From Acidimicrobiia bacterium (GTDB taxonomy: Bacteria > Actinomycetota > Acidimicrobiia > Spongiisociales > JAHEDJ01): 64,000 nt of DNA. The stretch is from positions 1 through 64,000 of the forward strand of contig JARGFH010000007.1 of assembly GCA_029210695.1 (NCBI GenBank), written 5' to 3'. The position numbers are program-made. Positions 54,501-57,500 of this stretch are shown in pieces. Every line of letters begins with the position of its first letter. Position 1 is the stretch's first letter.

Positions 54501-57500
54501 GCCACCACAGTCTGGTCCCGTTGTCATCGGGAGTGAAGTTCTGGTTGGGGATACTCGAACGCTCACACGGCTCGATGCGGCTAGCTTGGATCTGGTTGGG
54601 AGCTACGACCTCTCTGTGGGTACCCTCGCTGAGTCGTATGACGCCCGGGTGGTTGGACTCGTCGGTGTTGAACTGATTACTCGGACGGCGAGCGGGGTGC
54701 GAACCGATGCGGCGACTTATGGGGCCGACGGCGAAGGCGCTCTTTATGCGATGGTTCCTGGCTCTGGCATGGCGCGATCCGATTACACGGTCGAGATGGT
54801 GCCGGTCGTATCTGACCTCGGGGTGTTTCTCGTCGACACTGGTCACACGCTCCGCAGGCTTTCTCACGATCTCGGCCGCGATCTTTGGAACGTCGATCTA
54901 GCTGTCACTCCGACCGGACTATGGCTCGCCGACAACACTGTTTACGTTTCGTTGCCAGACGGAACTCTGGTAGCCATCGACGCACAAAGTGGCAGCGAAC
55001 TTCACCGCCTCGGAGTGGGAACAGGAATCGCCACTGCCGCCTTTACCGAAGGGGCGGTCATCATGGCCACAGGAGAGGGTAGAGTCACCGGCTTCCTCGA
55101 GCCGTCGGCTCCCGATCCCAGCCTGCCCAGGTTCGAACCGATTGTGAAAGACCCCCCGCCGCAGCCTGACGCTGTCGTTCGTGAGTTTTACGCCGCCGTG
55201 ACGGCGGGGGATCGGAAGCGAGTGGAGAGCCTCATTGCGGTCGATGCCGCGTTCGGTGCTGCCAAGGAAGGTGGCACCTGGTTCTCTCCAGACGCCCGCG
55301 ACGAGTTCTGGGCAAACTACGACTTCTTCAACACACTCAACGTCGCACTCTCCGTCGGCACGTGCGAACAAGAGGTCGTGGGCGAATCTGTCATGGTGGA
55401 CTGCGAAGTGACCCAGTCCGACACCTACCTCGACGCGCTCGGTGCCGAGATCTCTGGGAGTGGGCGACTCGTGGTGGAGTCGGGTCTCATCCATAGTTTT
55501 GTAGGAGGCCCCAACTTCCGCGGAGAGGTCAGAATCAGCCGTGCCAATGTCGGCTATCGACGCGGATTGACGTTCACCCTGGAATCGGAGCTTCTTTACG
55601 ACGATTTCTTCGATTGGGCTGCAACCACCCTGGCTGACGCTCTCGAAGCTTCTTGTGGTACCGACGTCTTAGAGCTCCCCACCGTTGAGTGCGCCCTCTT
55701 CATGCTTGACCACGTCGACGAATACATAGCGGCATCCGAATAGACCGGACATCGAAACCCCGACTCCCGGCGTTGACGGTCACCGCATCGGGCCACCAGG
55801 CTCCGTGGCTCATCTTGCCCCAAACACGTTGAGGCGGATCGCGTGGTCGTGGACTTTGATGAGAACTACGAAGCAGGATCGAAGGTCACCACACCGGCGT
55901 GGTGTTCGGATGGATACGTCAAGGGCGGCAGCGGCCGCCTCATCGGACAGCATCGCCGGGCTGCTAGCCAATGATCCCGAGGCCGATCAGAAGCATCGTG
56001 ACGGTTCCAAAACCACACACCCCGACCCAGATCCAACTGCCGAAGTCGAAGACTCTGGGGCCGTATCCTTTGCCCGCCAGTTCGCTCCTGACGTGCCGAA
56101 AAGCGATGTACCCGGCGACGCTCAACTCGGAGGCGTTAGCCCAGGTCAAGGAGGTGGCGGAGATCAGGAAGTTTCCCGAGGATGTCCTGACCGCCTTCAA
56201 GACCGACTTCGAGACGGTCCTGGACGACGTGGCAGCGAGCGATGCCGCCTTTGCCGCGATCCTTGCACCGTGGCGTGAGTTCCGCGACGCTGTTCAGGAG
56301 TGGCATTCCCTGGCCGAGTCGTCGATGCTCCGGGCGTACAATCTGTAGGAGATCCCGGGTCGAGGACCCTTCAGATCCGAATGAACCTGCACCTCGGTGC
56401 GGGTTCATTTGATGAGGGAATGCTCCGAGTTCGGTCCCGGTGATGCCCTACGATGCTTGGTGACGAATGGAGTTCCCATGTCCGGATCCGATCTGTTGGA
56501 TCAGGGTTACGCCGAAGTGCTGCGCCGGTGCGTCGCAACAGGTCGGGCGCCCCACTACACCGAACTGGCCGCTTCGCTCGGCATATCGCTGGAGGAGGCG
56601 AGATCGATGGTCCACGAGCTGGTGAGATTGACTCCGGGCTGGGTGCATCCTGGAACCGATCTCCTGGCGTCGTTCCCGCCCTTCAACCTTCAACCAACGC
56701 AGTACTGGGTGACGATCGATGGTGATCAACGCTGGTTCGCTCAATGTGGGCTCGAGGCCCTGGCCATCCGGTGGCTGGTCCCGGGCCAGACGGTGAGGAT
56801 CGATGCGCCCTGTTTGTGCTGCGGCGAACCGATGGTCTTGGAGATGATCGATGAATCCATCACCACCATCGAGCCTGAGGCAATGGTCGGCTACACGAGT
56901 TCTGAGATCGGCGGAGATCCGGCCACGCGACCATTTAGGTGAGCGAACATGAACCTCTTCCGGTCGGAAGACCACGCTCGCAACTGGGACCGGTACGACG
57001 ACACAATGGCAGCCAGCCTCCGTCCGGTGGCCGAATGGGCAGACATCTTTAGCAATGTCTACTTCCGGTCGCGGGGCCGCCCCGATTTCGTGTCGTGGGC
57101 GAAGAGCGAAGCAGGCATAGAGGCGTTCGCCGAGCTTCGACGTCGAGCCCGATCCTGACTCCGGTACGTCCCTGACTCCGGCCCGCCGATCGGCGACGCC
57201 GTCTGCGTTCAGATCTCCTGCAATGCCTCGGCCAGGGGCTGAACCATTCCTGGGTTGAACGGCGCCCGCAAGCTGAACACCGCCATGTCGAGTCCGGTCT
57301 CGAACAATTGAGCCGCCTCGGCGGCCAGGGCCTTCGGGTCGGCATCGGCGGGAGTGAACACGTGAGCGCTGCGCGTGATCTCGTTTGCATTGCGTCCGAC
57401 TGCCTCGCAGTGTGAGAGCAGCACTTCGTTCTTGTGGTTCCAGGCGTCGGGTTCGATCCTCAGGGCATCCCAGATGTCGGCCCATCGAGCAACGATCTTC

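Follow-up and report, generated by a model that had tools for sequence, protein, structure and literature searches.

A predicted stand-alone selenoprotein of the MerB fold in an Acidimicrobiia bacterium

In the genome of an Acidimicrobiia bacterium, two small neighboring gene calls, the first of them resembling an organomercurial lyase (MerB), raise the question of whether they together encode one selenoprotein and, if so, what that protein might do. We examined the locus within a window of 64,000 nucleotides, the whole stretch of DNA analyzed here (positions 1 to 64,000 of contig JARGFH010000007.1, forward strand), to which all coordinates below refer.

The split gene and its in-frame UGA codon

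The genome-wide survey's note had joined the two calls, which are the table 11 open reading frames (ORFs) 56397..56942 and 56949..57158, into a single 226-codon gene read through a UGA, and our analysis bore this out. The frame is open both 5' and 3' of the in-frame TGA at 56940-56942 (codon 155), and 56478..57158 on the plus strand forms one gene of 226 sense codons, including Sec155, from the ATG at 56478, where the N termini of the orthologues align, to a TGA stop at 57156-57158, 71 codons past Sec155. The same frame recurs in 30 order loci and in 46 loci belonging to other species. In comparisons with close relatives, the differences found 3' of the UGA were in excess at the third codon position (e.g., 3/0/9, 12/4/22, and 8/7/21), and past 57158 the comparison with relatives revealed no conservation of the frame. 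The features of the locus are as follows.

56469..56472, plus strand: Shine-Dalgarno-like GGAG, 5 nt 5' of the ATG at 56478 (read from the sequence)
56478..57158, plus strand: whole MerB-like gene (frame conserved in 30 + 46 loci)
56685..57041, plus strand: MerB domain (PF03243), residues 70-188, across the UGA (Pfam)
56745..56747, plus strand: Cys90 codon TGT, at the MerB Cys96 position (PDB alignment; TGA in 17/30 order relatives)
56754..56756, plus strand: Glu93 codon, at the MerB Asp99 position (PDB alignment; Glu in 28/30, Asp in 2/30)
56811..56822, plus strand: Cys112-Leu-Cys114-Cys115, a CxxC knuckle between two strands (alignment, AF2 model)
56940..56942, plus strand: UGA, predicted selenocysteine 155, at the MerB Cys159 position (alignment, conservation)
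56956..56971, plus strand: putative SECIS-type hairpin with a 6-bp stem UCUUCC/GGAAGA and loop GGUC (conservation in relatives)

A survey of 401 genomes of the order, Spongiisociales, found a match in 75 of them. As the note had stated, all 31 of the matches with E values of <1e-40 carry TGA, once in 13 cases and twice in 18. When 30 loci from order relatives were read closely, TGA occupied column 155 in every one; of the 46 loci taken from other species-level genomes, 45 have it there as well, the remaining locus being masked. The further claim that order relatives have a second Sec at the equivalent of MerB Cys96 also stood, since TGA is found at column 90 in 17 of the 30 order loci. Cys is found at column 155 in a number of homologues (P0123, with 46% identity; P0127; P0136; P0260; and others), and among the 120 best database relatives, 107 have a length of exactly 154 aa. 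The genome has selA, selB, selD, and a tRNA-Sec (anticodon tca), all above curated cutoffs and all as previously reported, and its selD gene itself contains one TGA. A search of sequencing runs for transcript evidence listed no RNA run and a single DNA run, whose share of words was 0.05.

Beginning 13 nt past the last base of the UGA is a hairpin whose stem pairs 56956-56961 with 56966-56971 around the loop GGUC; a seventh pair is C-G in most relatives and a C-C mismatch in this gene. The codons that make up the hairpin are identical in all 30 order loci at L160 (CTC), F161 (TTC), R162 (CGG), and S163 (TCG) and in 29 of 30 at E164 (GAA); at other conserved Arg and Leu columns, three to six codons are in use. 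Column 90 serves as a natural control, because the codons 3' of it are fixed only in the UGA forms: R98 is CGC in 17 of 17 Sec forms, and in the Cys90 forms that have Arg it is CGG (five loci), CGA (one locus), or CGC (two loci). Folded as a single sequence, the hairpin was no more stable than expected by chance (z score of -0.45, with 63 of 200 shuffles folding equally well), and an Rfam scan matched no family, returning only a chance miRNA match (E value, 0.73). The evidential weight of the hairpin lies in its conservation and not in its single-sequence folding energy.

From these comparisons, we regard it as nearly certain that the gene encodes a genuine Sec-containing MerB-fold protein, and the prediction that codon 155 is decoded as selenocysteine, aided by the downstream hairpin, is very well supported. 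That there is no selenoprotein here, but instead two genes, a pseudogene, a UGA read as Trp, or plain read-through, is hardly credible: gene callers do split the frame, two JGI records (P0005 and P0008) show W at the TGA columns, and the hairpin by itself is no more stable than shuffled sequences and has no Rfam match, but the UGA and hairpin are conserved in >70 loci with invariant synonymous sites, the gene itself ends in TGA with nothing conserved past that stop, the Sec machinery is complete, and homologues show Cys rather than Trp at column 155. Translation of UGA as Trp under code 4 or 25 was rejected on two of these grounds, namely, the gene's own TGA stop and the Cys found in homologues.

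Fold, invariant residues, and relation to known proteins

The earlier proposal was that this protein has a MerB fold whose catalytic positions are occupied by Cys90, Glu93, and Sec155, and Pfam, alignment with PDB sequences, AF2 modeling, and Foldseek all agreed with it. The Pfam MerB model matched residues 70-188, across the TGA, with 65.5 bits (cutoff, 27), and phmmer comparison with PDB MerB placed C90 at Cys96, E93 at Asp99, and U155 at Cys159. The AF2 model had a pLDDT of 92.1 and a pTM of 0.87, and the 11 Foldseek PDB matches with E values of <=0.001 were all to MerB or MerB2. The residues in the MerB catalytic columns (Cys, Glu, and Sec) are chemical analogues of, and not identical to, Cys96, Asp99, and Cys159, and the position of MerB Cys160 is occupied by Ala. 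The invariant columns are 90 (Cys or Sec), 112 (Cys), 115 (Cys), and 155 (Sec), and column 93 is acidic in 30 of 30 loci (Glu in 28, Asp in 2). The AF2 model puts the CxxC in the hairpin turn that connects strands 105-111 and 118-124. The alignments show as new a set of four invariant sulfur or selenium residues that includes a CxxC (Cys112 and Cys115) absent from MerB. Weak Foldseek matches of the winged-helix-like N-terminal part to LexA and MntR (E values of about 1 to 2) led us to consider DNA binding, which we discounted, given that MerB shares this cap and that the N-terminal part is net acidic by inspection.

The protein resembles MerB (plasmid R831b; PDB 3F0O, 3F2F, and 1S6L) and MerB2 (5C17) in structure (Foldseek probability of 1.0; TM score of 0.55 to 0.68), in its N-terminal helical cap, in its retention of Cys96 and of an acidic residue at position 99, and in an F-F-x-S...W motif after the second catalytic residue. 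It differs from them in sequence, with 18 to 23% identity in the Foldseek alignments and scores far below the NCBIfam cutoffs for MerB (42.4 versus 193 bits for NF009710 and 35.7 versus 200 bits for NF033555). It also has Sec in place of Cys159, lacks Cys160, has an extra Cys in the CxxC (MerB has only Cys117), and is found here outside any merA, merR, or merT context.

The closest described comparison is with SaoL, the "selenocysteine-assisted organometallic lyase" (NF040728), which is likewise a MerB-fold selenoprotein recognized by PF03243. In the preprint of Haft and Gwadz (bioRxiv 10.1101/2022.07.06.499078), SaoL Cys99/Asp102/Sec162 are aligned with MerB Cys96/Asp99/Cys159, and the SaoL hosts are described as exclusively anaerobic. 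SaoL and our protein both place Sec where MerB has Cys159 and Cys where it has Cys96, both are truncated at the UGA in databases, and for neither is a dependence on MerA implied. The genome-wide survey's note had called this protein distinct from SaoL, which is correct with respect to the SaoL model (27.6 bits versus a cutoff of 140; best E value among 30 relatives, 1.1e-10) and to the motif, since SaoL has C-U and the present protein has F-R-U-A (its relatives have N-U, L-U, I-U, T-U, or M-U); the placement of Sec at the Cys159 position, however, is shared with SaoL. Further differences from SaoL are the Glu in place of Asp, the invariant CxxC knuckle, the hosts (Acidimicrobiia and other nonclostridial metagenome-assembled genomes [MAGs]), and the occurrence among relatives of a second Sec and of signaling fusions. 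NCBIfam and Pfam scans of the flanking genes did not find the nine-gene SAO neighborhood.

The comparisons show a large clade, separate from MerB and SaoL at the sequence level, whose members are cut at the UGA in databases. Its hosts are Acidimicrobiia of many habitats, together with some Deltaproteobacteria, Binataceae, Chloroflexi, and Methylomirabilota MAGs, and the clade that includes this gene (SH-aLRT, 99) is sister to a Cys homologue. The only MerB-family selenoprotein in the catalogues searched was SaoL, and the present family was found in none of them; the single BSepDB supplement file consulted makes no mention of MerB, mercury, or SaoL. When longer database relatives were sought, one turned up, P0273, with a length of 1576 aa, probably through the merging of an upstream ORF by the gene caller.

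Genomic context and a possible mechanism

Consistent with the reported lack of a merA/merT/merR operon, the genome (97.85% complete) has no MerA above cutoff (best score, 305 bits versus a cutoff of 454), and no merA, merR, or merT is found at the locus, whose neighbors are unrelated genes (an F420-type LLM oxidoreductase, an FAA hydrolase, and a binding protein). The genome contains one MerB-family gene. MerA was detected in 45 of the order's 401 genomes, in none of the genus's 7 genomes, and in 4 of the 28 genomes with a strong MerB-like match. In one of the latter (G031), merR-merA lies about 2.5 kb from an AAA-fused paralogue; the other three MerA-positive carriers have MerA on a different contig, so the link to MerA is anecdotal. 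No conserved partner gene was apparent, in that no neighbor family occurred in more than 6 of 43 loci.

The best explanation of the locus is a cytosolic, stand-alone selenoprotein of the MerB fold. As to its function, we favor, by analogy with MerB and with a likelihood that we place slightly short of even, a MerA-independent, selenium-assisted binding or cleavage of soft organometals. For the roles of MerB Cys96, Asp99, and Cys159, we relied on the review PMC10114901, according to which the proton passed to Asp99 comes from Cys159. A soft organometal cation, for which an organomercurial is the obvious candidate, would be gripped by the thiolate of Cys90 on one side and the selenolate of Sec155 on the other, and Glu93 would supply the proton for cleavage of the metal-carbon bond, by analogy with Asp99 in MerB. 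The metal would then be held on sulfur and selenium and might move to the CxxC pair and from there to cellular thiols. A difficulty is that a selenol would be mostly deprotonated, so the proton relay must differ from that of MerB. Lacking MerA, a mer operon, and a conserved partner gene, the protein would act alone, either as a very high-affinity lyase or as a stoichiometric trap. The substitutions of Glu for Asp and of Ala for Cys160 count against this mechanism; moreover, an Hg-Se bond would hinder release of the product, which, in the absence of MerA, makes a trap or a sensor more suitable than a turnover enzyme.

Alternative functions and significance

A sensor was the function proposed in the genome-wide survey's note, and we consider it unlikely, although it is the strongest of the alternatives to organometal handling. 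In this view, the protein would bind a soft metal or organometal as its ligand and, as an input module, control a separate partner in trans, e.g., a class III cyclase. Very tight binding by selenium and sulfur would suit detection at trace levels. As the note had reported, a class III cyclase domain (Guanylate_cyc) is fused C-terminally to the MerB-like domain in order relatives; we found this in 14 of the 30 order loci. An AAA ATPase is fused to the domain in 4 of 30, and the Cys-type relative P0260 carries a LuxR/GerE helix-turn-helix. These signaling fusions in paralogues show that the domain can function as an input module. The two-Sec fused forms (loci L025 to L044), on which no paper was found in the literature, are 36 to 44% identical to our protein in the shared domain and have in common with it Sec155, an identical hairpin, and the CxxC knuckle, but they mostly have Sec at column 90, have a C-terminal output domain, and form a separate clade (SH-aLRT, 96). 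The cyclase and AAA fusions are thus assigned by the tree to a paralogous clade apart from that of this gene, which is stand-alone in 5 of 5 order loci and in 45 of 45 readable loci of other species; the C-terminal cyclase domain is absent from this polypeptide, and no member of its own clade was fused in the loci read.

The proposal of a sensor had also drawn on the cyclase gene g03375, which lies 0.7 kb upstream and is 30% identical to the fused cyclase domain. This link failed. None of the 46 related loci (489 kb) contained a cyclase homologue, and the four closest relatives have different upstream genes. g03375 sits in a strain-specific segment of roughly 8 kb that adjoins a tRNA-Ala and a phage-type integrase and that also holds an AbiEii gene and a truncated group II intron reverse transcriptase. 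Nor does similarity single out g03375: the genome has five cyclase-domain genes, and each shows 30 to 37% identity to the fused domain. The gene g03376 does lie between the cyclase gene and the MerB-like gene, as noted earlier, but it is an ORF that spans a deletion junction (56119/56120). The adjacency of the cyclase is an accident of a variable genomic segment. Since relatives lack that adjacency and the fused forms group apart in the tree, the case for a sensor is drawn from paralogues and not from this gene, and no conserved partner gene lies nearby.

The four invariant sulfur or selenium residues could alternatively form a redox or a structural center. In the former case, which strikes us as improbable, a MerB scaffold would serve as a redox switch or a thiol-selenol oxidoreductase, in which a reversible Cys90/Sec155 selenenylsulfide (a diselenide in the two-Sec forms) is resolved by the CxxC. 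The presence of four invariant redox-active residues, including the CxxC, and the exchange of Cys and Sec at column 90 would fit such chemistry, and most catalogued bacterial selenoproteins are redox proteins according to the reviews PMC9312934 and PMC13188914. The fold, however, is that of MerB and not thioredoxin-like, the acidic residue of the MerB triad is retained in all 30 loci, and no conserved redox partner is found nearby.

Fainter still is the prospect of a metal site without lyase chemistry, in which the sulfur and selenium residues, with or without Glu93, would hold Zn, Cu(I), or Fe as a structural or chaperone site, a relic of the treble-clef/TRASH zinc-finger ancestry that has been proposed for MerB and for NosL, to which MerB is structurally related. 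The CxxC in its hairpin turn between strands is in keeping with such a site, as is the spacing C90-x2-E93-x18-C112-x2-C115, which we take to resemble a TRASH-type ligand pattern. NosL is a Cu(I)-binding lipoprotein without Sec. NosL/TRASH-type units have a Cys-based metal site on the same scaffold; our protein differs from NosL in having no sequence match to it and, by inspection, no signal peptide. According to PMC10114901, treble-clef-like TRASH units are found in both MerB and NosL, and the idea that they arose from zinc fingers is credited there to Kaur and Subramanian 2014. Against a metal site of this kind, Sec would be a costly choice for a purely structural ligand, and canonical MerB does without the second knuckle Cys.

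For this locus, the result is partly negative, in that the attractive link to a cyclase drops out. For the family, it adds a second, large lineage of MerB-family selenoproteins besides the SaoL of strict anaerobes. Gene callers cut its members at 154 aa, and the resulting stump is annotated as "organomercurial lyase"; surveys that count merB as a measure of methylmercury demethylation may therefore include a selenium-dependent, MerA-less protein. A broader reading, which we think quite unlikely, is that the family as a whole is a selenium-based, MerA-independent demethylase and detector of organomercurials or soft organometals that occurs widely among aerobic Acidimicrobiia and further uncultured lineages, with the stand-alone form cleaving or trapping trace methylmercury and the fused paralogues giving a cAMP or ATPase signal. 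If that were true, the family would provide a missing agent of mer-independent methylmercury breakdown in oxic soils and waters, as well as the first case of a sensor domain that relies on two selenocysteines. With its four invariant sulfur or selenium residues and its cyclase and ATPase fusions, the family is a good target for biochemistry on selenium and soft metals.

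Reading frame and decoding of the in-frame UGA

The genome-wide survey's note had joined two gene calls into one MerB-like gene read through an in-frame UGA, and the frame bears this out. Translation table 11 splits it into ORFs 56397..56942 and 56949..57158, which are the two calls.

Features of the MerB-like gene
56478-57158, +, MerB-like gene, a single frame of 226 sense codons with ATG at 56478
56469-56472, +, GGAG ahead of the ATG (sequence reading)
56940-56942, +, in-frame TGA, codon 155 (sequence reading)
57156-57158, +, terminal TGA (sequence reading)

Codon 155 almost certainly encodes selenocysteine (Sec), as the note proposed. 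The genome (3.9 Mb, 181 contigs, 97.85% complete) carries selA (434 bits), selB (298 bits), selD (399 bits) and a tRNA-Sec (73 bits, anticodon tca), all above cut-offs, and its selD is itself a selenoprotein gene with one TGA (S-G-U-A-C-K). MerB-like matches were found in 75 of 401 genomes of the order Spongiisociales, and each of the 31 with E<1e-40 has TGA, once in 13 and twice in 18. Across 30 loci of the order, TGA occupies column 155 in every case and column 90 in 17. The hairpin codons that follow are fixed down to the nucleotide (L160 CTC, F161 TTC, R162 CGG and S163 TCG in 30/30; E164 GAA in 29/30), whereas conserved residues elsewhere in these loci use varied codons (six each for R23 and R199, five for L30). 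Column 90, with its Sec and Cys forms, is a natural control for codon fixation after UGA: R98 is CGC in all 17 Sec-at-90 forms, compared with CGG in five, CGA in one and CGC in two of the Arg-bearing Cys-at-90 forms, and V97 is GTG in 15/17 of the former and variable in the latter. A wider scan, limited to one genome per species, added 46 loci, mostly from Acidimicrobiia MAGs and some labelled delta proteobacterium, Binataceae, Chloroflexi, Methylomirabilota or Rokubacteria; the TGA recurs with this hairpin in 45, and the site was masked in the remaining one. Homologues with Cys at column 155 also exist (P0123, 46% identity; P0127; P0136; P0260; others), and 3' of the UGA, differences from close relatives cluster at third codon positions. 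Exactly 154 aa is the length of 107 of the best 120 database relatives, which are therefore cut at the UGA.

That the gene encodes no selenoprotein would accord with a hairpin that folds singly no better than shuffles (z -0.45; 63/200 equally good), matches no Rfam family, shows no covarying pair among the loci (solely invariance and two wobble-compatible changes, in loci L047 and L084) and, with its GGUC loop, looks different from the selD hairpin (locus L018, G000:C94), which sits nearer to its UGA, starting 7 nt after it, and has the loop GUUCUGA; against the conserved UGA and hairpin, the Cys homologues, the third-position differences and the Sec machinery, we consider this scarcely credible.

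Two full-length JGI records, P0005 and P0008, have W at the TGA columns, probably from calling under a TGA=Trp code; P0008 lacks the M-N-L-F-R-S-E-E-H stretch. Of two further loci (L101, L107), one has a frameshift separating its N-terminal portion from the portion that begins at column 90, and the other lacks ~50 residues, Cys90 and the CxxC pair among them, but keeps the UGA and hairpin.

Fold, active-site residues and relation to SaoL

Three approaches agree with the note on a MerB fold, one of them also on Sec at the Cys159 position and Cys90 and Glu93 at those of Cys96 and Asp99. The read-through protein, P0002, scored 65.5 bits against Pfam MerB (cut-off 27) over residues 70-188, crossing the TGA. 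A phmmer search of PDB sequences matched solely MerB and MerB2 (5 sequences, E<=1) and paired Cys90 with Cys96, Glu93 with Asp99 and U155 with Cys159. An AlphaFold2 model built from 30 relatives (pLDDT 92.1, pTM 0.87) gave 11 Foldseek matches in PDB at E<=0.001, all of them MerB or MerB2 (TM 0.48-0.68). The NCBIfam MerB models were weak (42.4 bits against a cut-off of 193; 35.7 against 200), and the NCBIfam SaoL model gave 27.6 bits, below its cut-off of 140.

Among the 30 relatives, exactly four Cys/Sec columns are invariant (C90, C112, C115 and U155), together with L160, F161, R162, S163, E164, H166 and R199; column 93 holds Glu 28 times and Asp twice. The MerB residue matching Cys112 is the buried structural Cys117; Cys115 has no equivalent in MerB. 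In the model Cys112 and Cys115 make up a predicted CxxC turn flanked by strands 105-111 and 118-124, and CxxC occurs in many Cys-type relatives too. In the near clade, where column 90 is Cys, this knuckle (56811-56822; loci L063-L105 compared) is C-L-C-C; every form with Sec at column 90 has C-L-D-C (once C-L-E-C), and C-L-D-C is also present in some forms with Cys there. The protein carries the putative TRASH-type pattern C-x2-E-x18-C-x2-C. This pattern would fit the proposal that MerB derived from treble-clef (TRASH-like) zinc fingers, reported in the available part of a review (PMC10114901).

Sec at the Cys159 position is not a new feature and does not set this protein apart from SaoL, the described MerB-like selenoprotein, because SaoL Cys99/Asp102/Sec162 align to MerB Cys96/Asp99/Cys159, according to the accessible portion of Haft and Gwadz (bioRxiv 10.1101/2022.07.06.499078), which describes SaoL as having a C-U motif and a nine-gene locus in exclusively anaerobic bacteria. 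Prokaryotic selenoprotein reviews of 2022 and 2026 (PMC9312934, PMC13188914) have, in their available parts, one MerB-like entry each, equated in the latter with SaoL and the CU motif. Peng et al. 2016 (PMC5029168, supplementary file 4) tabulate "Organic mercuric lyase MerB2" among selenoproteins, for 17 organisms, some of which could be members of the present clade. The GOS paper with its supplements, the Olavius paper, the deep-Sep paper, the Actinomarina preprint, and the BSepDB main text and one supplement file mention no MerB selenoprotein, and our literature search for selenocysteine organomercurial lyases and MerB-adenylate cyclase returned nothing on this clade or the fusions described below.

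Genomic setting without MerA and a candidate mechanism

The genome has one MerB-family gene and, as the note held, no MerA above cut-off (best score 305 bits against 454). MerA exceeded the cut-off in 45/401 genomes of the order (one of them the unpublished genome G004, which is counted in the MerB-like tally too, has no MerB-like match there, and on which no conclusion hangs), 0/7 of the genus and 4/28 with a strong MerB-like match. In one carrier (L062, G031:C1:1399000-1412000), merR-merA lies ~2.5 kb from an AAA-fused two-Sec MerB-like gene, with a PIN and an SDR gene in between, and this merA has an N-terminal HMA domain; in the three other MerA-bearing carriers, MerA is on a different contig. 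Among 43 loci, each neighbour family is shared by six at most. The downstream genes are conserved within the genus only; they encode an F420-type LLM oxidoreductase, an FAA-family hydrolase and an NMT1/SsuA-like binding protein.

Beyond the identity, fold, three catalytic-position residues and Sec decoding signals that these data establish, the mechanism is modelled on MerB as summarised in the available part of PMC10114901. By this analogy, Cys90 and Sec155 would bind the organometal cation, Glu93 would protonate the carbon ligand, and the metal would be kept on S/Se, from where it may pass to the CxxC pair. The Hg-Se bond is very strong, and with no MerA present, turnover of the stand-alone protein may be slow, so that it may act as a trap. 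We tentatively favor a lyase or trap, which falls just short of an even chance.

Fusions, the neighboring cyclase gene and competing readings

The note had also read the protein as a sensor, citing cyclase fusions in relatives and the nearby cyclase gene g03375. The fusions are real: of 30 order loci, a Guanylate_cyc domain follows in 14 and an AAA ATPase in 4, the other 12 being stand-alone, and one Cys-type relative carries a LuxR/GerE HTH. In a quick IQ-TREE phylogeny (42 rows; SH-aLRT support only; long outgroup branches), however, the fused clade (18 rows, support 96) is separate from the window's clade (5 rows, support 99), whose sister is the Cys homologue P0123 (91), and all readable members of the wider own clade are stand-alone. 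An orthologue in G084, a genome of another family (f6; L021 / L050 / L064), shares 81% identity and falls within the clade of the window's genus, and its neighbors (DUF4032/Kdo kinase, Lhr helicase) are unrelated, a pattern suggestive of lateral transfer or a binning error.

Features upstream of the MerB-like gene
46626-55948, variable segment, adjoining tRNA-Ala(GGC)
46626-46702, tRNA-Ala(GGC)
46772-46791 and 52336-52355, 20-nt direct repeat
46815-47909, -, phage-type integrase
51296-52015, -, AbiEii-family gene
52307-53206, +, 5'-truncated group II intron RT/maturase ORF (model positions 120-352 of 353)
53314-55743, +, g03375, cyclase domain (residues 10-153), then PQQ-type (beta-)propeller
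55971-56348, g03376, 125-aa ORF crossing the deletion junction 56119/56120 relative to G027

The proximity of g03375 did not hold up as a functional link. It is 30% identical to the fused cyclase domain (E 3e-14), and four other genes of the genome are similarly so (30-37%, E 6e-13 to 4e-8). The 46 related loci (489 kb) contain no cyclase homologue. The four closest relatives all have other upstream genes: TRAP dctQMP in G027, a PGAP1-like hydrolase and D-Ala ligase in G017, DUF4032 and Lhr helicase in G084, and a HAD hydrolase in G037. Same-genus G027 (92% protein identity) is homologous to window positions 56120-60573 and 55949-56119, with a 4.6-kb G027 stretch between these blocks absent from the window. 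The C-terminal 75 residues of g03376 correspond to the end of dctP, a gene for a DctP-family binding protein; what remains of that gene, along with dctQM and a peptidase gene, is missing relative to G027. Left of 55949 there is no adjoining match to G027, and 38000-46700 and 47122-47707 match it again further left. Most of the variable segment has no G027 counterpart, only the integrase end matching (73-80% identity); given this and its content, g03375 belongs to a strain-specific variable segment, and its adjacency to the MerB-like gene is, on this comparative evidence, incidental. A trans-acting sensor, to which the fusions and the HTH-bearing relative would lend weight, is thus an unlikely role for the stand-alone protein. 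A redox protein seems improbable, and a metal site without lyase chemistry a slim prospect. The note's observation stands, and its interpretation does so in part, without the cyclase gene's proximity.

On the favored lyase-or-trap reading, the same binding event would, in the fused paralogues, serve as a signal. The window's protein is the plain stand-alone form, with one Sec, of a MerB-family selenoprotein lineage that is distinct, widespread and mis-annotated.
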